From positions 2,166,354-2,230,353 of the forward strand of contig OZ244908.1 of assembly GCA_965221705.1 (NCBI GenBank): a stretch of 64,000 bases of DNA, written 5' to 3'. Made by a program: the position numbers and the translations under genes. Below, one piece after another: positions 1,426 to 12,042 of this stretch; the first letter of the stretch is position 1, and each line of letters starts with the position of its first letter. The notes under the pieces were generated by a model that did no database searches, was not told where the DNA came from, and saw only the letters and a program-made list of their open reading frames with translations. Source of the DNA: Dehalococcoidia bacterium (lineage in GTDB: Bacteria > Chloroflexota > Dehalococcoidia > Bin125).

Positions 1426-1884
1426 ATGGTCCAGAATCCACCCGAAGGCAGTCAACGCATCATCCCCTATCTCAACTACGCCGACCCGCGCGCGGCCATC
1501 GAGTTCATCTGCGACGCGTTCGGATTCGAACAGGGGCTGCTGCTCGAAGGCCCCGATGGCTCAGTAATGCACTGCGAGCTGCTCTACGGCGGCGAGATGG
1601 TGATGCTGGCCGGTGAGTTTGTTGAGATCGGACTGAGCAGTCCCCAGTCGCTCGGCGGCGTGCACGCCTCAATCGCGATCTACGTTGATGATCTCGAAGC
1701 GCACTACGAGCGAGCCAAGGCCGCGGGCGCGCGGATCGTCGAGGAGCCGATGGATCAGTTCTACGGCGACCGGACCTATCGCGCTCTCGATGCTGAGGGG
1801 GTCGGCTGGGACTTTCACCAGCACATGCGCGATGTCTCGCCCGAGGAAATGGCCGCCGCCATGTCCGAGCAGCCTCAAGGATAG
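1426..1884 (+). CDS. VOC family protein (glyoxalase/bleomycin-resistance/dioxygenase fold), copy 1 of tandem pair
   Basis: 152 aa; PYLNYADPRAAIEFICDAFGF ... QFYGDRTYRALDAEGVGWDFHQHMRDVSPEEM; near-identical architecture to the next ORF. Confidence 0.75.
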   Translation: MVQNPPEGSQRIIPYLNYADPRAAIEFICDAFGFEQGLLLEGPDGSVMHCELLYGGEMVMLAGEFVEIGLSSPQSLGGVHASIAIYVDDLEAHYERAKAAGARIVEEPMDQFYGDRTYRALDAEGVGWDFHQHMRDVSPEEMAAAMSEQPQG

Positions 1885-1892
1885 GAAAAACG

Positions 1893-2351
1893 ATGGTCGA
1901 GTCCGAAGCCGCGAACTTCAGTTCGCAGATCACGCCGCAGCTTTCCTACGACGACGCGTCCGCCGCAATCGAGTGGCTTTGTCGAGTGTTCGGCTTCGAG
2001 GAGCTCTATCGCCTAGAAATGCCCGACGGTTCGATCGGCCACGCTGAGTTGGTCTACGCCGGGGCCAGAATCGCCCTGGCCTCGGCCTACCCCGAGGGCG
2101 GCCTCGGCGGTCCACGAGCGTTGCCGCACGTACACAGCAGCCTGCAAGTCGATGTCGAGGATGTCGACGCGCACTTCGCCCGAGCCAAGGCCGAAGGCGC
2201 CAACGTCATCCAGGAGCCGGCAGACCAGTTCTACGGCGACCGCACCTATCGCGCGCATGACCTCGAGGGTCACCGCTGGTGGTTCCATCAGCACCTGCGC
2301 GACGTCTCGCCTGAGGAAATGGCGAACGCCGTCGCTGAAATGAGCGAATGA
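1893..2351 (+). CDS. VOC family protein, copy 2 of tandem pair
   Basis: 152 aa paralog of previous ORF (QFYGDRTYRAHDLEGHRWWFHQHLRDVSPEEM); 9 bp spacer. Confidence 0.75.
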   Translation: MVESEAANFSSQITPQLSYDDASAAIEWLCRVFGFEELYRLEMPDGSIGHAELVYAGARIALASAYPEGGLGGPRALPHVHSSLQVDVEDVDAHFARAKAEGANVIQEPADQFYGDRTYRAHDLEGHRWWFHQHLRDVSPEEMANAVAEMSE

Positions 2352-2382
2352 GCCAGTCAGCGGGTGCGTCAGCGACGCGCGA

Positions 2383-3210
2383 CTAGTTGATGCGCCGCTT
2401 CACGCGGACGCGAATCACCACCCCGCTGCGCGGCTCGTCGCCCTCAGCCGGATAGCGGTCGACCTGCCAGTACAACGGCGCCAGCTCATCAAGCAGCCGG
2501 TGGTCTTCGACCGGCGTGATCTCGACCGTCCCACGCAGCTCCGTATAGCGATAACCGTCGGCCTCGTCGTGGATGCTGACCGCGACCGCCGGATTGCGAC
2601 GCAGATGCAGCGTCTTCACCGTCTCTGGACCGGTCCAGAATTCGATGTCGTCCTCGCCGCTATCGGCGACTCGGCGATGCCAGACGACGGATGATCGCGG
2701 CTGCCCGCCCGAGCTCACCGTCGCGACATGCGCAAAGTGCGGCGGACTCAGCAGATCGGTCCCAGGCTCGGGCGTCGGGTGCGACGGCGGCGCTACGAAC
2801 GAACCGCTCGTGACCGCGCGCTCGACCGTCACGCGAACGCGGAACCCCTCGCGATTCTCGGTCTTGAAGGGATAGTCGCGACCCATGTACGTCCGCGACA
2901 TCTCATCGGTGTCGTCCCAAGTCGTGACCGGCGACAGCTGGGCGCTGCCCAGAATCTCCAACGTCCGATACGGATTGTCCGTGTCGTGAACCGACAGCGA
3001 CACCCGCGCATCTCGCTCCATGTTGAGCGACTTGCGATAGCCCTTGCCGGTGCTGAACCAAATCGAGCGGACGCTACCGTCAGCGTCGACCTCGTCGGGC
3101 GCAATCCAGATTGGCGACGACGACGGCGATCCGTCGCGATTGACCGTGACGAGATGCGCGAAATGCGGCGCGCCGCAGAGATCAGCGAACTCGGCCGGGA
3201 CAAATGACAT
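2383..3210 (-). CDS. pyridoxamine 5'-phosphate oxidase-like (PPOX class, probable F420/FMN-binding) protein with two tandem PNPOx-like domains
   Basis: 275 aa; internal repeat PPHFAHLVTVNRDGSPSSSPIW / PPHFAHVATVSSGGQPRSSVVW. Confidence 0.65.
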   Translation of the reverse strand: MSFVPAEFADLCGAPHFAHLVTVNRDGSPSSSPIWIAPDEVDADGSVRSIWFSTGKGYRKSLNMERDARVSLSVHDTDNPYRTLEILGSAQLSPVTTWDDTDEMSRTYMGRDYPFKTENREGFRVRVTVERAVTSGSFVAPPSHPTPEPGTDLLSPPHFAHVATVSSGGQPRSSVVWHRRVADSGEDDIEFWTGPETVKTLHLRRNPAVAVSIHDEADGYRYTELRGTVEITPVEDHRLLDELAPLYWQVDRYPAEGDEPRSGVVIRVRVKRRIN

Positions 3211-3313: not shown

Positions 3314-4957
3314 CTAGCGGCTCAGCGTCGCCGAGTAGCCGCCGAATCGCGCCTGTCCTGGCATGGCGTGCTGCTCGACCTCAACGTTGACCACGGCCGC
3401 CTTACCCGAAGCCATCGCGCGCTCGATCGCCGGACCGATGTCCTCTGGCTGGGTCACATGCTCGCCGTGTCCGCCGAGGGCAATGGCGATGTCCTCATAG
3501 CGCTGTCCGAAGCCCAGCGGTCGCCCTGGAGTGTCGTTCGAGCCGGCTGTCCAGCCAGCGTTGTTCGAGATCACGATCGTCGCCGGTAGGTCGTGGCGAA
3601 CCATCGTATCGATCTCCTGCACGTTCATCAGGAACGAACCGTCACCGACAAAGCCAATCACCTGGCGCTCGGGAGCGGCCGCCTTGGCGCCGAGCACGAA
3701 GGGAAGCCCCACGCCCATGCAGCCATTGGGACCAGGATTCAGCCGACCGCCCTCGACGTACGAGGGAATGTACTGACGCGCCCAGGCGAGTGTCGCGTTG
3801 CCGTCAACGCAGACGATTGCGTCACGGTCCATGCGCTGCACAATCTCGTCCGCCAAACGCAATGGGTGAATCGGCACGCTCGACTCTTGCGCCAACTCGA
3901 CGTACTGCTGGCGACGTCCGTCATCTGACTCGCGCAATTCGGCGATCCAGTCGGTCGACGGCTGTAGGTTGGCCTCGCGAGCCGCCGCCGTCAGCGCGAC
4001 CAGCGCCCGCTTGGCGTCGGCGACCATACCGACTGTGGCTTCCTTGTTGTGGCCGATCTCCGTCGGATCGGTGTCCACGTGGATCACCTTGAGGTCTGGC
4101 GACCAGCGAGGCGGCAAACCCGAGCCGACGACAAAGTTCAGCCTGGTGCCGACAACGAGCGCCACGTCGGCCTCGCGGAAGGCCTTGCTGCGCGCCGCCA
4201 GGAAACAGAGGTCGTGATCCTCCGGCACGACGCCGCGACCCTGTGGCGTCGTGTAGAACGGTATCTGCGCTGTATCAATGAACTCCCGCAGCTCGGCCGA
4301 GGCGTCAGACCAGAAGACTCCGGTGCCGGTCAGCACGATCGGTCGCTCGGCGTTGGCCAAGAGCTCGATCGCCTGCTTGACCTGGTCCGGATCGGCGCCG
4401 GGGCGGGAGCGCTCGCCGCCCGTCTTGGGGAACCAGACAGCCTCGTCATCTGACTGTTGATACAGGGTGTCGCCAGGCAGATCGAGATACGTCGGCCCTG
4501 GCTTCGGACCCTGCGACTCCCGATAGGCGAGATTGAAGAACTCTGGCATCCGCGCCGAGTGCGTTACGCGACTGGCCCAGCGAGTGACCGGCGCCGCCAT
4601 GGCGAGTTGGTCGTACTCCTGAAAGTCATCGCGCTCGAACGATGAGAACGCCGCCGCGCCGCCAAGCGCGACCATCGGTACGCCGTCGAGGTACGCATTG
4701 GCGACCCCGGTCAACAGATTGGTTGTCGCCGGGCCAGAAGCGGCCATGCAGACGCCCGGCACGCGCTTGACTCGCGCGTAACCATGCGCCGCCATCGCCG
4801 CGCCTTGCTCATGTCGACAATCGATCGTGCGAATGCCGTGCTCGGCGGCAAAACCGGCCGCCTCGATGATCGGCCCGCCCATGATGTAGAAGAGGTCCTC
4901 GACCCCTTCGTTGACCATCTGCCGCGCAAGCAGCTCAGATCCCATCTGATCAGCCAT
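3314..4957 (-). CDS. thiamine pyrophosphate-dependent enzyme (acetolactate synthase large subunit-like)
   Basis: 547 aa; N-terminal TPP-enzyme Pyr domain (GVEDLFYIMGGPII...CRHEQGAAMAAHGYARV), C-terminal GDGSF TPP-binding motif. Confidence 0.85.
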   Translation of the reverse strand: MADQMGSELLARQMVNEGVEDLFYIMGGPIIEAAGFAAEHGIRTIDCRHEQGAAMAAHGYARVKRVPGVCMAASGPATTNLLTGVANAYLDGVPMVALGGAAAFSSFERDDFQEYDQLAMAAPVTRWASRVTHSARMPEFFNLAYRESQGPKPGPTYLDLPGDTLYQQSDDEAVWFPKTGGERSRPGADPDQVKQAIELLANAERPIVLTGTGVFWSDASAELREFIDTAQIPFYTTPQGRGVVPEDHDLCFLAARSKAFREADVALVVGTRLNFVVGSGLPPRWSPDLKVIHVDTDPTEIGHNKEATVGMVADAKRALVALTAAAREANLQPSTDWIAELRESDDGRRQQYVELAQESSVPIHPLRLADEIVQRMDRDAIVCVDGNATLAWARQYIPSYVEGGRLNPGPNGCMGVGLPFVLGAKAAAPERQVIGFVGDGSFLMNVQEIDTMVRHDLPATIVISNNAGWTAGSNDTPGRPLGFGQRYEDIAIALGGHGEHVTQPEDIGPAIERAMASGKAAVVNVEVEQHAMPGQARFGGYSATLSR

Positions 4958-5011
4958 GTCGCCGTCCTCTCAAGACTCGATCCCGAATGGTTATGCGATC
5001 GATGACACCGC

Positions 5012-5302
5012 TCAGTCAGGTACTTCGTAGCGATGCAGCACTGGTCGCGCTGTGGTGAACTCGCGAATCCCAGCCATGCCCTGCATCGCCTCCGAAGTGC
5101 CGTGCGCCGTCAAGTCTTCTTCAGTGGCCCAGTTCTCGAACAGGATGTACCGAGTCTCGTCGTCAACTGAGCGGAACAGGTCGTAGTTGTTGCAGCCCGC
5201 GTCCTCGGCCTTGACCTTGGCTGTGGCGCCCGCCATGAAGGCTTCGAACGCCTCCGCCTTGCCTTCAGCCACCGTGAATTCCACTGTCAGCCCAATCGCC
5301 AT
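5012..5302 (-). CDS. antibiotic biosynthesis monooxygenase (ABM) family protein, putative quinol monooxygenase
   Basis: 96 aa; ferredoxin-like ABM pattern (TVEFTVAEGKAEAFEAF ... RYILFENWATEEDLTAHGTSEAMQ). Confidence 0.65.
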   Translation of the reverse strand: MAIGLTVEFTVAEGKAEAFEAFMAGATAKVKAEDAGCNNYDLFRSVDDETRYILFENWATEEDLTAHGTSEAMQGMAGIREFTTARPVLHRYEVPD

Positions 5303-5464: not shown

Positions 5465-6289
5465 ATGCTTGAGACGCTACGTATGGACGGCAAGCGCGTG
5501 ATCGTCACTGGGGCCGGGCGCGGCCTCGGTCGTCAGATGGCGTTGCACCTCGCCGTCGCAGGCGCGGACATCGTCTGCGCGGCGCGGACCGAGTCGCAGA
5601 TCGCGGCCGTCGCCGAAGAGATTCGCGCCATAGGACGGCGCGCGCTCGTTATCCCAACCGACGTCAGCGTCTCGGCCCAAGTCGACGCGATGGTCGAGCG
5701 GACGATCGACGAGTGGGGCGGATTTGAGGTGATGATCGCCAACGCTGGCGGCGGAGGCGCCGCCTCACTCAAACACGTCACTGAAGTCTCCGACGATGAT
5801 TGGCGCGACACGGTTGATCTCAACTTCTCCAGCGCCTTCTACTGCGCGAGGGCCGCAGCGCGGCACTTTCGCGCCGAGTCCAAGCCCGGCAACATCATCA
5901 CCGTCGCCTCCGGCACCGCACTGCGCGGCGACGCTCGGCTGTTCGTGTACGGCGCATCCAAAGCCGGCGTGATCACGCTGACTCAGGCCCTGGCGACGCA
6001 GCTCGCCCGTGAACAGATTCGCGTCAACTGCATCGTCCCGGGCTTCGTCGCCCAACAAACGCTCGAGACCACCGAGCAAATCGAGCAGGCGCGCAACCAG
6101 GGATCGCGCATACCCGTCGGTCGCATCGGCGAGGCCTGGGAACTCGGCCCGTTGGCCGTCTATCTCGCCTCCGACGCCTCGGCCTATATGACGGGCGAGG
6201 CGATGATCATCGACGGCGGCGGCCTCGCAGGCGGCCTCGCGCCAACGGGCTGGGACGTCCAGGCCGGCATTGGAGGCGTGCCCTCGTGA
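5465..6289 (+). CDS. SDR family oxidoreductase (classical; TGAGRGLGR cofactor motif, YxxxK present)
   Basis: 274 aa; VIVTGAGRGLGRQMA, NAGGGG, FVYGASKAG catalytic motif. Confidence 0.85.
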   Translation: MLETLRMDGKRVIVTGAGRGLGRQMALHLAVAGADIVCAARTESQIAAVAEEIRAIGRRALVIPTDVSVSAQVDAMVERTIDEWGGFEVMIANAGGGGAASLKHVTEVSDDDWRDTVDLNFSSAFYCARAAARHFRAESKPGNIITVASGTALRGDARLFVYGASKAGVITLTQALATQLAREQIRVNCIVPGFVAQQTLETTEQIEQARNQGSRIPVGRIGEAWELGPLAVYLASDASAYMTGEAMIIDGGGLAGGLAPTGWDVQAGIGGVPS

Positions 6290-7080
6290 GCCCGCAGAAC
6301 CCAGTGCCTCCTCCCGACGTTGCCGAGGGCCAGCTGCAAGGCTTCGACCTCAGCGGCAGACGCGTGATCGTCTACGGCGCCGAGAAACCAAGCCTGGCGG
6401 CGATCGTCGACGCGCTGCGCGAAGCCGGGGCAACCGTCGGCGTGACCAGCGCCAACACCGATGGCGCATCCCTGTTCCGACTCAAGAAAGCCGCCGGCAG
6501 CGGGCCCAACGAGGCCGTCGATCTGTCCAACGGTACCAACATCCAGGTCGCGACGCGCAAGATCTCGAAAGAGCTGGGCGGTCTCGACGCGGCCATTGTC
6601 GCGCCGCAGCTCTACCACGCCGCTCCGCTGCGCAAGACACTCGACGCCGATATCCAGCGTGTGCTGATGGCCAATCTCGGCGGCGCCTTCGCCGCCTTTC
6701 GCAGCGCCAATCGAGAGTTCCGCGACCGTCCCGGTCGACTGATCGCCGTGCTCGACGCTTCCGCCGTCCGAGGCCTCACCAATCTCAGCCTGTACAGCGC
6801 CGCGCAATCAGGCGTAATCGGCCTCGTCCGATCGCTGAGTCAAGAGCTGGCGCCGAACGGCACGACAGTCAATGCCATCGTCGTCGGTTGGACCGACGCC
6901 TCGCCCGGTCGCGGGCCGTCAGCGGCGGAAGACAACCTGCTCCTGCGATTCATACCGATGCGTCGCTTCGGCGAGCCCGCCGACCCCGCGCCGCTGGCCG
7001 TCTATCTGGCCTCCGAGGCGAGCGGATACATCACCGGCCAAACGATCCAGGTCGATGGCGGCGTGCTCAAGCACCTGTAA
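6286..7080 (+). CDS. SDR-like protein, atypical (degenerate Gly-rich motif, catalytic Lys replaced: LYSAAQSG); probable non-catalytic partner subunit
   Basis: 264 aa; GTG start overlapping upstream SDR stop by 4 bp (GTGA); SDR fold motifs NAIVVG, IQVDGG. Confidence 0.7.
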   Translation: MSPQNPVPPPDVAEGQLQGFDLSGRRVIVYGAEKPSLAAIVDALREAGATVGVTSANTDGASLFRLKKAAGSGPNEAVDLSNGTNIQVATRKISKELGGLDAAIVAPQLYHAAPLRKTLDADIQRVLMANLGGAFAAFRSANREFRDRPGRLIAVLDASAVRGLTNLSLYSAAQSGVIGLVRSLSQELAPNGTTVNAIVVGWTDASPGRGPSAAEDNLLLRFIPMRRFGEPADPAPLAVYLASEASGYITGQTIQVDGGVLKHL

Positions 7081-7116
7081 GCCCGGTCGTCGGCGAGAGC
7101 CTTCTTCAGCAGTCAG

Positions 7117-7153
7117 CCCTTGTATAAGGATATCCAGCATCCTTATACAAGGG
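7117..7153. promoter_or_regulatory. perfect 14-bp-stem inverted repeat (cccttgtataagga-N9-tccttatacaaggg) in an AT-rich spacer 37 bp after the SDR stop and about 85 bp upstream of the Fic gene; terminator or operator
   Basis: read directly; local GC far below genome average; taaggatat element recurs at about 7216. Confidence 0.4.
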
Positions 7154-7237
7154 CCTGTTTCAAGCCAATGATCCTCAAGACTCCCTGAGAAACCGATCAG
7201 AACACCTTGTCATTAGATAAGGATATGTCCTATCATT

Positions 7238-8482
7238 ATGCAAGAAGACTCAGTTGGAAAAGGAACGTGTGTGCGAGGAAGGCTCGTTCGCCAAAGCTGG
7301 CGGCATGATCCAACCTTCTACGCGCCACCGCGCTACCGGCGCTCGTGCAGCTACGAGTCATTCATTCCCGAACCCCTTGATCTCAGTGGTCACGAATTCG
7401 AGCTCCCGACAGACCTGGCCGCGACCCTGTCCGAAGTCGAAGCCGGCATTACAGCACTCAACAACGACGTGAGACCCGGCCTCTCATCACTGTCCAGACT
7501 GCTCTTGCGAACTGAATCGATTGCATCTTCAAAGGTCGAAGGTATGCAGGCCGACGCCAGAGCGCTGGCCATGGCCGAAGCGAGACTCCGCCTCGGACGC
7601 AGTGTTGGGGCGCAGGCGAGAGAAATCATCGCCAACATCGATGCCATGGAACAGGCCGTCCAGCGCGCCGCCGAAGCGGACATTTTCAGCCTCGACGACC
7701 TGCGCCAGATCCATGCGGCGCTCATGAACCGATTCCCTGCATCAAGACGCGCCGGTCAGCTACGCGACAGCCAGAACTGGATTGGCGGGAACGACTACAA
7801 CCCCTGCGGCGCCGACTACGTTCCGCCGCCGCCTGAGGAGGTAGTCCCGCTCTTGGAGAATCTCTGCGAGTTTGCTGAGTCGGATCTCTTTCCACCCATG
7901 ATGCAGGCCGCGATCGCCCACGCTCAGTTCGAGACCGTCCATCCATTTGATGACGGCAATGGACGCACCGGCCGGGCGTTGGTGCAAGTCGTGCTCCGAC
8001 GACGCGGCGTAGCGCCGCAGGTCGTTCCACCAATCAGCGTCGTGCTGTCGCTCCGACGAGACTCTTACATCAATGGTCTGGTCGCCTATCGCGAAGGCCG
8101 CTGGGTCGAGTGGATCACGACGTTCGCCGCCGCAACCGCGCAAGCGGCATCGTTGGCAATCCAATACGGAGACCTGGTTCAGGACCTGCTGGAGTTTTGG
8201 GCAGCGCGGCTGCGCCACACCTCGAACCCCCGCGCCGACGCTGCAGCCTGGCTCGTGCTGCAAGCGCTGCCGGCCTACCCTGCCATCACGGTCTCCGACG
8301 CGGTCCTCGCCACAGGTCGGAGCCAACCCGCGGTCAACGCAGCGTTCTCACAGCTGGAAGAGGCGGGCATCCTGACTCCGCTGGGACGATCGCGCCGCAA
8401 CCGCGCTTGGGAACCACAAGGTCTCCTGGACCTGATCATCGCCATCGAGTCAGGCGAACCACCTGCGCCTCGGCTAGACTGA
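7238..8482 (+). CDS. Fic family protein (class II, N-terminal inhibitory helix), probable AMPylase
   Basis: canonical Fic motif HPFDDGNGRTGRALV; N-terminal SSKVEG matching [ST]xxxE[GN] inhibitory motif; gene GC visibly lower than flanks; exact start uncertain (7238 or 7304). Confidence 0.85.
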   Translation: MQEDSVGKGTCVRGRLVRQSWRHDPTFYAPPRYRRSCSYESFIPEPLDLSGHEFELPTDLAATLSEVEAGITALNNDVRPGLSSLSRLLLRTESIASSKVEGMQADARALAMAEARLRLGRSVGAQAREIIANIDAMEQAVQRAAEADIFSLDDLRQIHAALMNRFPASRRAGQLRDSQNWIGGNDYNPCGADYVPPPPEEVVPLLENLCEFAESDLFPPMMQAAIAHAQFETVHPFDDGNGRTGRALVQVVLRRRGVAPQVVPPISVVLSLRRDSYINGLVAYREGRWVEWITTFAAATAQAASLAIQYGDLVQDLLEFWAARLRHTSNPRADAAAWLVLQALPAYPAITVSDAVLATGRSQPAVNAAFSQLEEAGILTPLGRSRRNRAWEPQGLLDLIIAIESGEPPAPRLD

Positions 8483-8514
8483 CCTCGCCGAACACTGGAC
8501 TTCTGGAGCGCCCC

Positions 8515-9396
8515 ATGACCGACTTTGAGAACATCATCTACCGCGTCGAAGACCGCAAGGGATACATCACGCTCAACCGCCCCGAGAAACTCAACGCGCT
8601 CTCCATCGCGCTGCAAGACGAACTCTCGCAGGCGATGTGGGAGGCCGATAACGACACTGCAGTGCACGTCGTGATCCTCAGCGGCGCCGGGCGCGCCTTC
8701 TCGGCCGGCTACGATCTGACCGGCTCCACGCGCGATTCGCAGGAGACGTACGACAAGGTCTACCGCGGCCGCGTCACCTTCGACGACGACACCTGGGGCA
8801 TGGAACGCGCCCAACGCGCGCGCATGGCGATCTTCGACATGCACAAGCCCGTGATCGGCAAGGTGCACGGCTACTGCCTCGCCGGCGGCACCGACCTCGT
8901 CCTGCTCTCCGACATCATCATCGCCGCCGACGATGCCGTGATCGGCTTCCCGCCCGTTCGCGCGATGGGTTCGCCGCCGGCTCACATGTGGCTCTATCAC
9001 GGCGGACCGCAGTTCGCCAAGCGGATGCTGCTCACCGGCGACAGCATCTCCGGCGCCGAAGCGGCCAAACGCGGCCTCGTCTACGACGCCGTGCCCGCCG
9101 ATCAACTCAACGACACAGTGGAAGAGCTCGCCGACAAAATGGCGATGATCGACCACGAGCTGCTCTCTGCCAACAAGCGCATCGTTAATCTCGGCCTCGA
9201 AATCATGGGCGCGCGAACGCTGCAGCGTCTGGCGTCCGAGAATGACGCACGAGCGCACCTCGCGCCGGCAGTCATGGAGTTCGGCAAGATGTCGCGCGAG
9301 AAGGGACTCAAGGCCGCGCTCGAGTGGCGCGACAACAAGTTCGGCGACGGCCGCGGTTCCGCCGCCGCTCAGGAACGTAAGGCCGCCACGACCTAA
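8515..9396 (+). CDS. enoyl-CoA hydratase/isomerase (crotonase) family protein
   Basis: 294 aa; YITLNRPEKLNAL ... ILSGAGRAFSAGYDL oxyanion-hole motifs. Confidence 0.85.
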   Translation: MTDFENIIYRVEDRKGYITLNRPEKLNALSIALQDELSQAMWEADNDTAVHVVILSGAGRAFSAGYDLTGSTRDSQETYDKVYRGRVTFDDDTWGMERAQRARMAIFDMHKPVIGKVHGYCLAGGTDLVLLSDIIIAADDAVIGFPPVRAMGSPPAHMWLYHGGPQFAKRMLLTGDSISGAEAAKRGLVYDAVPADQLNDTVEELADKMAMIDHELLSANKRIVNLGLEIMGARTLQRLASENDARAHLAPAVMEFGKMSREKGLKAALEWRDNKFGDGRGSAAAQERKAATT

Positions 9397-9432
9397 CACG
9401 ACCTAACAAGCAGGCAAACGACGACCTCGCTG

Positions 9433-10239
9433 ATGGCGACTCCCGACCGCTTCCGTCTCGATGGACAGGTCGTCCTGCTCACCGGGGCGGGACGCGGTCT
9501 CGGTCGCGCCATGGCCATCTCATTCGCCGATGCCGGCGCCAAAGTCGCCGGCGCAGCGCGCACGATGTCTCAGCTCGACGAGACCACTGAACTGGTCGCC
9601 GAGCGCGGTGGTGAAGCGATCTCGATTCAGACAGACGTCAGTGACTCCAACGCGGTCGACGCCATGGTCGAGCACACGCTCGAACGGTTTGGCCGCGTCG
9701 ATGTGCTGATCAACAACGCCGGCGGCGGAGCAGAAGGCGATGGCGCCCCGCTCGACCAGCTGACCGACGACCAGTGGCGCTCTGGCATCGACCTCAATCT
9801 GACCTCGCAGATGCTCTGCGCTCGCGCAGTGCTGCCGCACATGACCGATCGCGGCTCGGGCGTGATCATCAACGTCGCGAGCGGCTTCGGATTGCGCGGC
9901 GGGCGGGAAAACTGGATGTATGTCTCAGCCAAGGCGGGCGTGGTCAACTTCACCCGCTCCCTGGCAGTCACCTACGGACCCGCCGGCGTCCGCACCAACT
10001 GCATCGCGCCAGGCATCTTTCCCCATACGCCTCAAGCGCTTGAGCGCTGGCGCGGCGGCCGATACATCCCCGTCGGACGCGCCGGCCTGGCTTGGGAGAT
10101 GGGACCGCTGGCCGTCTTCCTCGCCTCCGACGCCGCAGCCGGCATCAGCGGCGAGACGATCGCTCAGGACGGCGGCGGACTCGCCGCGATCGGTCCAACC
10201 GGTTGGGCGCCGCGCGTTCGTCTCACCGAGCCGACCTAG
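9433..10239 (+). CDS. SDR family oxidoreductase (classical), paralog of 5465-6289
   Basis: 268 aa; VLLTGAGRGLGRAMA, NNAGGG, MYVSAKAG. Confidence 0.85.
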   Translation: MATPDRFRLDGQVVLLTGAGRGLGRAMAISFADAGAKVAGAARTMSQLDETTELVAERGGEAISIQTDVSDSNAVDAMVEHTLERFGRVDVLINNAGGGAEGDGAPLDQLTDDQWRSGIDLNLTSQMLCARAVLPHMTDRGSGVIINVASGFGLRGGRENWMYVSAKAGVVNFTRSLAVTYGPAGVRTNCIAPGIFPHTPQALERWRGGRYIPVGRAGLAWEMGPLAVFLASDAAAGISGETIAQDGGGLAAIGPTGWAPRVRLTEPT

Positions 10240-10249
10240 GGAACGACCA

Positions 10250-11056
10250 GTGTCCGACTTCGTACCGTCGCCCAACCCAGAGCCGTCCGATGATCCCTTC
10301 CAGCTCAAGGGCCGCGTCGCGCTCGTCGTTGGCGCGGGCGACCCGCTGGGACGCGCCTCAGCTGTCGCGCTGGCCGAGGCCGGCGCTGATGTCGCCGTGG
10401 CTAGCCTGCGAGCCGGACCGCAAGAGGTCGTGCGCGTCAACTCAGTCGCGAACGAAATCTGGTCTCTGGGACGAGGCAACACGGCGATCACCCTTGACGC
10501 CAGCGACGAACGCAGCGTCGATGCCGCCATCGCTCGGACGACCTCGGAGCTGGAACGACTCGACATCCTCGTCAATGCCGCCGACGTGCCAGCAGCTGCG
10601 CCGCTTGATGAGTTGTCGCCCGACGATTGGCAGGCGATCCTCTCCGTCAACTTGATCGCCCCGGCGCTCACCGCCCGCGCCGCCGCCCGGGTAATGCGCA
10701 TCAACGGCTACGGACGAGTCATCAACCTCGTATCTGTGCTCGCCGCCCGTGGCGTGGCGAACACGACGGCGTACGCCGCCGCTCACGCTGGCGTCCTGGC
10801 AATGACGCGCGCGCTCTCCCAGGAATGGGCGCGCGCCGGCGTCACGGTGAACGCGCTGCAAGTGGGCTTCTATGACGGGCAACCTGGCTTCGGCGACGAC
10901 CCCGAGTCAGCCCAACAACTCGCGCGCATGCTGCCCGCCAAAGCGCTGGTCAACCCCGTTGACGTTGGCGCGGCTGTCGTCGGACTGGCGGCCGATTCCG
11001 GCTTCATCACCGGCGAGACCATCGCCGTCGACGGCGCCGCCACCGCTCGCGTCTGA
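10250..11056 (+). CDS. SDR-like protein, atypical (catalytic Lys replaced: AYAAAHAG), paralog of 6286-7080
   Basis: GTG start 10 bp after upstream SDR; 268 aa; RVALVVGAGDPLGRASA, NALQVG. Confidence 0.7.
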   Translation: MSDFVPSPNPEPSDDPFQLKGRVALVVGAGDPLGRASAVALAEAGADVAVASLRAGPQEVVRVNSVANEIWSLGRGNTAITLDASDERSVDAAIARTTSELERLDILVNAADVPAAAPLDELSPDDWQAILSVNLIAPALTARAAARVMRINGYGRVINLVSVLAARGVANTTAYAAAHAGVLAMTRALSQEWARAGVTVNALQVGFYDGQPGFGDDPESAQQLARMLPAKALVNPVDVGAAVVGLAADSGFITGETIAVDGAATARV

Positions 11057-11061
11057 AGCCG

Positions 11062-12042
11062 TCAGGCCAGGAGCGACTCCGTCACAGCCTCGATCCGCGC
11101 GCGCTGCGGAATGCGCTCAAGCCATCGCAGCGGAATCATCGACGCACCGTACCGCGCCCCCAACACGGTGCCGGCCACTGCCCCGTTCGTGTCAGTGTCG
11201 CCGCCCGCACTGACAATCCGAATCAGCGACTCTTCGAAATTGTCTGGACTGTCCAGGCACCACAGTGCCGCCTGGGCGCAGAGATACGTATGACCGCTGA
11301 CTCGTTCCTCAGCGATTCGATCCTCGATCTGTCTCGGAACTGCCAGCATCCAGGCGACCAGCTCAGCAGGGGCGCCGTCGCTGGCGGCGGCGAAGCTGAG
11401 TTCCTCGCGCTCGGGCGAGGCCCCGCGCAACAGCATGGCGAGCGCGACGTTGACCACAATGCACGACCACTGCGCGCCAGGCGCGTAATGAGTCACGGAG
11501 CAGCTCGCCGCCGACTGCGCAATCAGCGCGCCAGGGTCGTGCGCGAACCTGAGCGCCACCGCAGCGCAGCGCATCAGCGCGCCGTTTGGTTGCGTCAGCG
11601 GACAGCCATGTTCGCGCCAAAACGCGCGCGCCGCATCGGGTACCCCCAAGCCGACCTCGAGGTAATCGATTACGCGTGACGTCATCACGCCAACGCCGCG
11701 GCCATTCGAGCTGCGCCACTCGACCAACCGCCGTGCGAATCCCTCGATTGGGCCAGGATCCACGGCGTATGCCTCGGCCAGCTCGATTGCCTGAGCTAGA
11801 TCGTCATCCATCGGCCGTTCAGACTCCCGTGGATCGATCTCGCGCACGCCATTGGGATAGCGGCCTCGGATCGCGTCGCGCGTCTGACCCTCGACTGGCA
11901 GTCCGAGCAGATTGCCAACCGCCAATCCCAGCAGGACGCCTCGCGCTCGATCATGGTCGACTGGCGCGTCCGCCAGATCGCCCAGCATTCGCGCCAGCCG
12001 CGGCGCGCGCCGCACGACCCCAGGATCGTCACTGTCAGGCAT
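11062..12042 (-). CDS. ADP-ribosylglycohydrolase family protein
   Basis: 326 aa; GVLLGLAVGNLLGLPVEG N-terminal motif and GGDTDTNGAVAG metal-binding motif. Confidence 0.8.
   Translation of the reverse strand: MPDSDDPGVVRRAPRLARMLGDLADAPVDHDRARGVLLGLAVGNLLGLPVEGQTRDAIRGRYPNGVREIDPRESERPMDDDLAQAIELAEAYAVDPGPIEGFARRLVEWRSSNGRGVGVMTSRVIDYLEVGLGVPDAARAFWREHGCPLTQPNGALMRCAAVALRFAHDPGALIAQSAASCSVTHYAPGAQWSCIVVNVALAMLLRGASPEREELSFAAASDGAPAELVAWMLAVPRQIEDRIAEERVSGHTYLCAQAALWCLDSPDNFEESLIRIVSAGGDTDTNGAVAGTVLGARYGASMIPLRWLERIPQRARIEAVTESLLA

Follow-up and report, generated by a model that had tools for sequence, protein, structure and literature searches.

The 64,000-nucleotide stretch of DNA analyzed here (the window) comes from contig OZ244908.1 of a metagenome-assembled genome (MAG) of a Dehalococcoidia bacterium (Chloroflexota). 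It contains four genes of short-chain dehydrogenases/reductases (SDRs), the only SDR genes in the window, which are arranged on the forward strand as two adjacent pairs. In each pair, a classical SDR, presumed to be the catalytic subunit (A1, 5465..6289; A2, 9433..10239), is followed by a gene for a second protein of the same fold, predicted to be its pseudoenzyme partner in the first pair (B1, 6286..7080; B2, 10250..11056). A1 and B1 overlap by 4 bp (GTGA, 6286..6289), the start of B1 lying on the stop of A1 in the manner of translational coupling. A2 and B2 are separated by a spacer of 10 nt (10240..10249), and in the orthologues a GGGAG-like Shine-Dalgarno sequence stretches across the A2 stop. 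Between the pairs, on the same strand, there are genes for a 414-residue Fic protein with Fic_N and Fic domains (7238..8482) and for a crotonase-family protein of the NCBIfam PRK08272 subfamily (8515, the true start, to 9396). The G+C content of the region is 64-69%. The module recurs in related genomes.

All four SDR proteins match the Pfam families adh_short/adh_short_C2 (PF00106/PF13561) with E-values from 1e-18 to 1e-53, far above the cut-offs. None of them reaches an NCBIfam equivalog cut-off, and all remain "SDR family oxidoreductase". In pairwise alignments, A1 and A2 are 47% identical, B1 and B2 36%, and the A and B proteins 32-33%; B1 and B2 have a proline-rich N-terminal extension in common. 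In the identical public contig, gene callers place the start of A1 at 5483 rather than 5465, while the calls for A2, B1, and B2 agree.

We read the motif positions from an alignment to Escherichia coli FabG, in which the motif columns fell as expected. Both A proteins carry the cofactor motifs of classical SDRs. A1 has TGAGRGLGR, the NAG core in the form ANAG rather than the full NNAG, and N120, S149, Y162, and K166; A2 has TGAGRGLGR, NNAG, N122, S150, Y163, and K167. Hence an earlier sequence-only reading of this DNA was right to call A1 and A2 paralogous canonical SDRs with the glycine motif and the Tyr/Lys pair kept. Since both proteins have an Arg in the glycine motif and another after beta-strand B, the usual SDR coenzyme rules suggest that their cofactor is probably NADP(H). 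The C-terminal tail of A1, GGLAGGLAPTGWDV, is conserved, and that of A2 is GGLAAIGPTGWAPRVRLTEPT; among the orthologues, the tails GGLAGGLAPTGWDV and PTGWAPRVRLTEPT are almost invariant.

The same motifs are degenerate in the B proteins. B1 has YGAEKPSLA in place of TGxxxGxG and IVAPQLY in place of NNAG; its catalytic positions are N130, D157 (for Ser), Y170, and Q174 (for Lys, in YSAAQ). B2 has VGAGDPLGR, in which Pro has supplanted the central Gly, and reads VNAADVP where NNAG would be expected; it retains N134, S162, and Y175, with H179 replacing Lys (YAAAH). In both, the PG motif is changed to VG(W/F). We searched B1 and B2 for a complete Asn-Ser-Tyr-Lys tetrad with cofactor motifs and found none, and the observed patterns are conserved across 43-51 orthologues. 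Thus the degenerate glycine motif and the replacement of Lys by Gln or His, both proposed from sequence alone, hold in the FabG alignment, and no full tetrad has been retained elsewhere in either protein.

The B proteins still belong to the classical-SDR fold and not to an unrelated Rossmann family, as follows from the Pfam matches of B1 and B2 and from the structural model of B1. AlphaFold2 (AF2) predicts a complete SDR fold for B1, with a predicted local distance difference test score (pLDDT) of 91.3 and a predicted template-modeling (pTM) score of 0.89. The top Foldseek matches of this model in the PDB are ordinary tetrameric classical SDRs with TM-scores of 0.8-0.9; this search revealed no preference for BbsC, the inactive subunit of a heteromeric SDR discussed below, or for other inactive subunits, and so confirms the fold and nothing more. 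In the AF2 model of A1, the core is well predicted, and low confidence is confined to the substrate loop (residues 196-225) and the tail (residues 250-274). An A1 loop and tail of low confidence next to a B1 that is confident throughout would be compatible with ordering only in a complex, without being evidence for one.

To see how far the arrangement is conserved, we surveyed one genome per species. B1 is present at 57-87% identity in about 50 MAGs of Dehalococcoidia/Chloroflexota, the homologues being named Chloroflexi, Dehalococcoidia, or SAR202. The conserved order consists of a thiamine diphosphate (ThDP) enzyme and an ABM-domain protein on the reverse strand; A1, B1, an optional Fic gene, crotonase, A2, and B2 on the forward strand; and an ADP-ribosylglycohydrolase on the reverse strand, followed by TPR and ClpS genes. 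B1 lies immediately 3' of A1 in all 51 loci, as does B2 relative to A2 in 43 of 43. The 4-bp overlap of A1 and B1 (ATGA or GTGA) is kept in 44 of the 51 syntenic loci. The A2-B2 spacing is 9-12 nt in 36 of the 43 loci, the remaining seven having an overlap of -1 or -4. The tight coupling noticed earlier in the window is therefore a conserved property of both pairs.

The B open reading frames (ORFs) are intact in about 50 species. In 14 close genomes, the ratios of nonsynonymous to synonymous substitution rates (dN/dS, Nei-Gojobori) are 0.21 for B1 and 0.14 for B2, as compared with 0.08 for A1 and 0.11 for A2; the crotonase and the ThDP enzyme yield 0.08 and 0.07, respectively. B1 and B2 are clearly under purifying selection, somewhat relaxed relative to the A genes. 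Dozens of alignment columns of B1 and B2 are invariant among the orthologues. The C-terminus of B1, DGGVLKHL, is invariant or nearly so, and that of B2, DGAATARV, almost invariant. The catalytic positions behave differently in the two groups. Among the B1 orthologues, the Lys position is always Gln, rarely His; Tyr is replaced by Phe, Val, Leu, His, or Met in several lineages, and the Ser position is occupied by Asp, Glu, Ala, or Ser. The B2 orthologues retain Asn, Ser, and Tyr and have His in 42 of 43 cases. As the catalytic positions differ among the B lineages, they seem to be no longer used for catalysis; such lineage-variable loss is as expected of pseudoenzymes.

The pair extends beyond this locus. 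We searched a profile of the B proteins against 1.84 billion representatives and took the best 150 of the 50%-identity representatives. Of these, 117 are single-domain proteins, and the glycine motif is degenerate in 52 of the 117. The distant B-like proteins form several subtypes, none of which has NNAG or a central Gly in its glycine motif and which differ in the surviving catalytic residues (YxxxK, YxxxR, LxxxH/Q, YCAAQ, and ACASQ). In the set of loci that we looked up, every distant B-like gene with a readable upstream neighbor is preceded by a canonical A-like SDR gene with the tail DGGGLAGGxAPxG[W/Y/L/F], often overlapping it; in one locus (L072), one gene lies between the two. Upstream of P0105 lies a gene truncated by the end of the contig that shares 4 bp with B; it has no Pfam annotation and is at most a candidate A-like gene. 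The settings of the distant pairs are otherwise unrelated and include BacA/ABM, an esterase, a biotin-protein ligase, and others. Another Dehalococcoidia MAG (L071) carries both a type-1-like and a type-2-like pair (3633-5218 and 6431-8009), between which DUF1232 and methyltransferase genes stand instead of a crotonase gene; the B2-like protein of this locus has Pro for Ser but retains Lys. One widely conserved subfamily lies directly 3' of a gene for a BirA-type biotin-protein ligase (L076, 3078-4843; L078/L079, 2979-4759) and may have a core function. Its B protein reads TADRRGWTP and in most cases has Ala for Tyr and Gln for Lys. In some sources, it is annotated as 2-deoxy-D-gluconate 3-dehydrogenase.

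In a neighbor-joining tree, the A proteins form one clade (100% bootstrap) and the B proteins another (94%). For 17 modules, the separate A and B trees have the same deep split, with types 1, i, ii, and iv on one side and types 2, 2-like, v, and BirA-linked on the other. The Mantel correlation between the two trees is r = 0.82, a value reached by none of 5000 permutations. The shared split and the correlation mean that the A-B pair duplicates as a unit; according to the trees, it has done so many times, and the two pairs in the window are the two deepest branches, on opposite sides of the deepest split. The recurrence of the gene order in about 50 genomes and the mirrored phylogenies of A and B show that the arrangement is not due to chance. 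The sequence-only reading had spoken of a twice-duplicated module and had left it to a phylogeny to decide between segmental duplication and independent recruitment. The module is present twice, which amounts to one ancient duplication. Neither proposed origin stands in its simple form, as a recent segmental duplication is rejected by the position of the two pairs astride the deepest split of the family, and independent recruitment by the co-duplication of A and B.

In addition, the B profile retrieved 23 proteins that are 450-625 residues long and contain two SDR domains each (P0242, P0251-P0257, and others), which could have been fusions of A and B. For the most part, the six that we read consist of canonical SDRs in tandem, of the PRK06484 type; a first domain that is partly degenerate (TGASQEFG, NASE) occurs in P0252 alone. 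Hence these proteins were not used as Rosetta-stone evidence.

To our knowledge, heteromeric SDRs with a dead partner amount to a handful of cases: BbsCD, the 3-ketoacyl-ACP (acyl carrier protein) reductase KAR of mitochondria (HSD17B8/CBR4), NovJ/NovK (reportedly a heterotetramer), the domains of malonyl-CoA reductase and, since 2026, petunia benzaldehyde synthase. The sequence-only reading had likened the pairs to KAR, an alpha2beta2 enzyme in which CBR4 is catalytic and the other subunit a scaffold. However, HSD17B8 is reported to retain its cofactor site and catalytic residues, unlike B1 and B2, and the substrate of KAR is an acyl-ACP. Neither HSD17B8 nor CBR4 is among the best 60 PDB matches of B1, and the neighborhood of the A-B genes has no fab genes, containing a crotonase and a ThDP lyase-like gene instead. 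Thus the comparison with non-catalytic partners survives, whereas KAR is not the best model for it; BbsCD, petunia benzaldehyde synthase, and the SDR domains of malonyl-CoA reductase are better models and the closest analogues.

BbsCD is reported to be an alpha2beta2 tetramer encoded by adjacent genes for a catalytic SDR and an inactive pseudoenzyme, and to act on a coenzyme A (CoA) ester in a beta-oxidation-like route beside the crotonase BbsH (von Horsten, 2022, via PMC13418739 and PMC10818641). The likeness to A1B1 and A2B2 lies in the adjacency of one canonical and one degenerate SDR paralogue and in the crotonase neighbor. The differences are that the inactive bbsC comes first there, while the catalytic gene comes first in the A-B pairs, and that here there are two pairs per operon and a non-canonical crotonase. 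We found no specific sequence link. Among the PDB matches of B1, BbsC is approximately the 32nd, with 78 bits compared to 102 for generic SDRs, and among those of B2, the catalytic BbsD scores 115 bits, equal to generic FabG matches. This suggests that the A-B family arose independently of BbsCD.

In petunia benzaldehyde synthase (PhBS), the beta subunit keeps Asn-Ser-Tyr, with Lys replaced by Leu (Ala or Ser in orthologues) and Tyr by Asn in one species; the C-terminus of beta contributes basic residues that bind the diphosphate of CoA in the alpha subunit diagonal to it, and restoration of Lys disrupts assembly (PMC13418739). The lineage-variable degeneration of beta resembles that of B2 and B1. 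However, PhBS belongs to plant peroxisomes, its reaction is the reduction of a thioester to the aldehyde, and its subunit genes are unlinked (PMC13418739); the comparison with the A-B pairs is one at the level of the SDR superfamily. The malonyl-CoA reductase of Chloroflexaceae, with the order SDR1-SDR2-SDR3-ED-SDR4, alternates catalytic SDR units with non-catalytic ones (SDR2/SDR4), two of each; an Arg of the inactive SDR4 binds malonyl-CoA, and the two modules catalyze consecutive steps (PMC10470521). It shares with the window the phylum Chloroflexota and a catalytic-plus-inactive module present twice; it differs in being one fused polypeptide of 1,200 residues rather than the product of four separate genes, and consecutive action of A1B1 and A2B2 is only a conjecture. 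The best 60 PDB matches of B1 do not include malonyl-CoA reductase, and neither do those listed for A1 and B2 under stricter E-value cut-offs. NovJ and NovK of novobiocin biosynthesis are likewise encoded by two adjacent FabG-like genes and reportedly join in oxidizing a beta-hydroxyl on a pantetheine-bound substrate (Pacholec et al., 2005, via PMC12284476), although they belong to Streptomyces secondary metabolism. BbsCD, PhBS, malonyl-CoA reductase, and KAR all use pantetheine thioesters and thereby provide a precedent for the A-B pairs. PDB sequence searches with A1, B1, and B2 retrieved no solved member of the A-B family.

The neighbor enzymes point in the same direction as to the substrate. 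In the crotonase, both hydratase glutamate positions are changed, to D127 (AGGTD) and P147 (GFPPV), which we take to be the positions of E144 and E164 in rat enoyl-CoA hydratase (ECH). The motifs AGGTD and GFPPV are invariant in 44-47 orthologues, and the closest structure is that of an uncharacterized mycobacterial protein. With both glutamates replaced, a simple hydratase is unlikely; isomerase, hydrolase, or retro-Claisen chemistry may be possible. The ThDP enzyme (3314..4957), which together with the ABM-domain protein (5012..5302) forms the conserved divergent neighborhood on the reverse strand, is closest to 2-hydroxyacyl-CoA lyase/synthase and oxalyl-CoA decarboxylase (E = 1e-99). Crotonase or CoA-transferase genes also lie beside other A-B modules (P0105, L072). 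This context makes a CoA (pantetheine) thioester the most likely substrate class, favored although unproven.

One further feature concerns A1. In 21 of the 51 syntenic loci (L003, L004, L006, L007, L009, L012, and others) and in 46 of 120 protein clusters, that is ∼40%, the catalytic Tyr of A1 is replaced by Asp (FFVDGAAK; proteins P0133-P0139 and others). The Asp-type proteins also have a one-residue insertion, show ANAGAS instead of NNAG, and retain the Gly motif, Ser, Asn, and Lys. A1 of the window is of the Tyr type. The Asp-type genomes form a tighter subgroup; A1 identity is 80% between the types compared with 89% within them, an extra jump that is seen in A1 and not in the crotonase or the ThDP enzyme. 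We looked for a matching change in B1 and saw no burst, hence no signal of co-evolution with this switch. In imine reductases, Tyr and Asp alternate as the proton donor. We know of no classical SDR with this change.

Because of the conserved adjacency and start/stop coupling, the purifying selection on B, and the variable loss of catalytic residues in B, we strongly favor an A/B heteromer with a non-catalytic B. In its full form, we consider it likely that each pair forms one heteromeric SDR whose substrates are probably CoA thioesters, most likely an alpha2beta2 tetramer like BbsCD and petunia benzaldehyde synthase. Within the complex, the catalytic tetrad and the sole NAD(P)(H) site that functions would be those of A1 and A2. 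B1 and B2, predicted from their motif loss not to bind NAD(P), would be non-catalytic SDR-fold partners that stabilize the tetramer and help to shape or close the substrate site of A, which would give them the obligate scaffold role suggested earlier; they might do the latter by means of the invariant basic C-terminus of B (…LKHL, …TARV), the conserved tail at the C-terminus of A, or both. The substrate, most likely a CoA (pantetheine) thioester, would be handled jointly with the intervening non-canonical crotonase, and the divergent 2-hydroxyacyl-CoA-lyase-like enzyme would be consistent with it.

Several observations weigh against this heteromer. B2 keeps Asn-Ser-Tyr with a near-invariant His and is less surely inactive than B1, so that residual or altered activity may be possible; several distant B types retain the full Asn-Ser-Tyr-Lys set; and the substitute motif YGAE of B1 is itself invariant, so that the site could bind a new ligand instead of being empty. 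On the A side, the nearest NCBIfam and PDB families are sugar-acid and FabG-type enzymes, not acyl-CoA dehydrogenases, several A-B modules lie in neighborhoods without CoA genes, and, given the ∼40% share of Asp types, the description of A as an ordinary dehydrogenase does not hold across the A1 orthologous group. The first of these points are also the ones that speak for B1 and/or B2 being enzymes with non-canonical chemistry that catalyze a separate pathway step, B2 perhaps via Ser-Tyr-His and B1 perhaps via a new site around YGAE. Such enzymes might be cofactor-free or bind the cofactor differently, like the SDR-fold halohydrin dehalogenases. This is most plausible for B2, and the conserved substitute motifs and confident monomer model of B1 also agree with it. 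However, the catalytic positions vary freely between the B lineages (Tyr to Phe, Val, Leu, or Ala; Ser to Asp, Ala, or Pro; Lys to Gln, His, Arg, or Met), which ill fits a conserved alternative mechanism, and the strict co-inheritance and co-phylogeny of A and B exceed the needs of two successive pathway enzymes. We therefore regard separate B enzymes as unlikely.

Somewhat less probable still is that A and B form separate homo-oligomers, adjacent because they catalyze consecutive steps, or steps of opposite stereochemistry, in one pathway. Tandem SDR genes are common in catabolic clusters, and the genomes of SAR202/Dehalococcoidia are rich in SDR paralogues; but a B without cofactor-binding motifs, a pairing that persists over otherwise unrelated neighborhoods, the conserved start/stop coupling, and the mirrored trees all argue against it. 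B could also be a regulatory or sensor pseudoenzyme, for instance an NmrA-like redox or metabolite sensor, that modulates A or the crotonase. Pseudoenzymes are often regulators, and the constraint on B is relaxed but real. Yet nothing specific favors this role, which we hold to be very improbable, as translational coupling suggests equimolar synthesis of the two proteins and Pfam detects no DNA-binding or signaling domain in B. The lineage-variable catalytic positions and the co-phylogeny of A and B speak against the homo-oligomers and the regulator as well. Finally, the motif loss and a dN/dS above that of A could be read as signs that B1 and B2 are functionless decaying duplicates. This is effectively refuted by intact ORFs in about 50 species, dN/dS of 0.14-0.21, the invariant columns and C-termini, and the confident AF2 fold.

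Beyond the heteromer itself, a broader picture may be sketched, although we doubt that it will hold as a whole. The A-B pair could be the standard Chloroflexota (Dehalococcoidia/SAR202) build of an SDR for CoA- or pantetheine-bound substrates. A1B1, the crotonase lacking both glutamates, and A2B2 would then be an unfused counterpart of the four-SDR malonyl-CoA reductase, performing two consecutive redox steps around a C-C or C-O step of the crotonase on one CoA ester, e.g., in opening or trimming an alicyclic acyl-CoA. The replacement of the proton donor Tyr by Asp in A1 of sister lineages would represent new SDR chemistry, and the BirA-linked pair would be a core, possibly FabG-like, heteromeric reductase.

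The locus points to a large, uncharacterized family of pairs in Dehalococcoidia/SAR202, probable two-subunit enzymes of a known architecture that apparently evolved independently in Chloroflexota and in which A and B co-diversify. Dehalococcoidia/SAR202 are credited with the degradation of recalcitrant marine organic matter, partly because "SDR paralogues" are so numerous in them (PMC5395668). Should a considerable fraction of these paralogues be non-catalytic partners, both dehydrogenase counts and automatic annotations such as "SDR family oxidoreductase" and "2-deoxy-D-gluconate 3-dehydrogenase" would be misleading. The A-B family also offers a natural series, with partners that range from near-intact to wholly degenerate, in which the evolution of pseudoenzyme subunits could be studied.

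As for the rest of the locus, the two pairs had been described as flanking a Fic island and an enoyl-CoA hydratase. Both genes do lie between the pairs, but the second lacks both hydratase glutamates. About 11 of 50 syntenic loci have no Fic gene; the Fic scores range from 395 to 918 bits, and the G+C content of the gene (0.59) is lower than that of the surroundings. A sigma-70-like promoter lies ahead of it at 7207-7236. These features mark Fic as a variable insertion into an underlying unit of A1-B1-crotonase-A2-B2. Also 5' of Fic, there is an AT-rich perfect hairpin at ∼7117-7155 (TTGTATAAGGAT…ATCCTTATACAA) and a repeat of ATAAGGATAT at 7217. A scan for promoters and terminators detected a promoter-like site at Fic only and terminators not above the shuffle expectation, and is uninformative on operon structure.

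The ADP-ribosylglycohydrolase gene (11062..12042, reverse strand), which some syntenic loci lack, directly adjoins B2 but runs on the other strand. Together with Fic (7238-8482, forward strand), it makes two protein-modification genes in one metabolic locus. On the other side, upstream of the ThDP gene (1426-3210 in the window; counterparts in L003-L052), the number of glyoxalase/VOC-family genes varies from two to six and that of F420-type PPOX genes between one and two among otherwise syntenic genomes.

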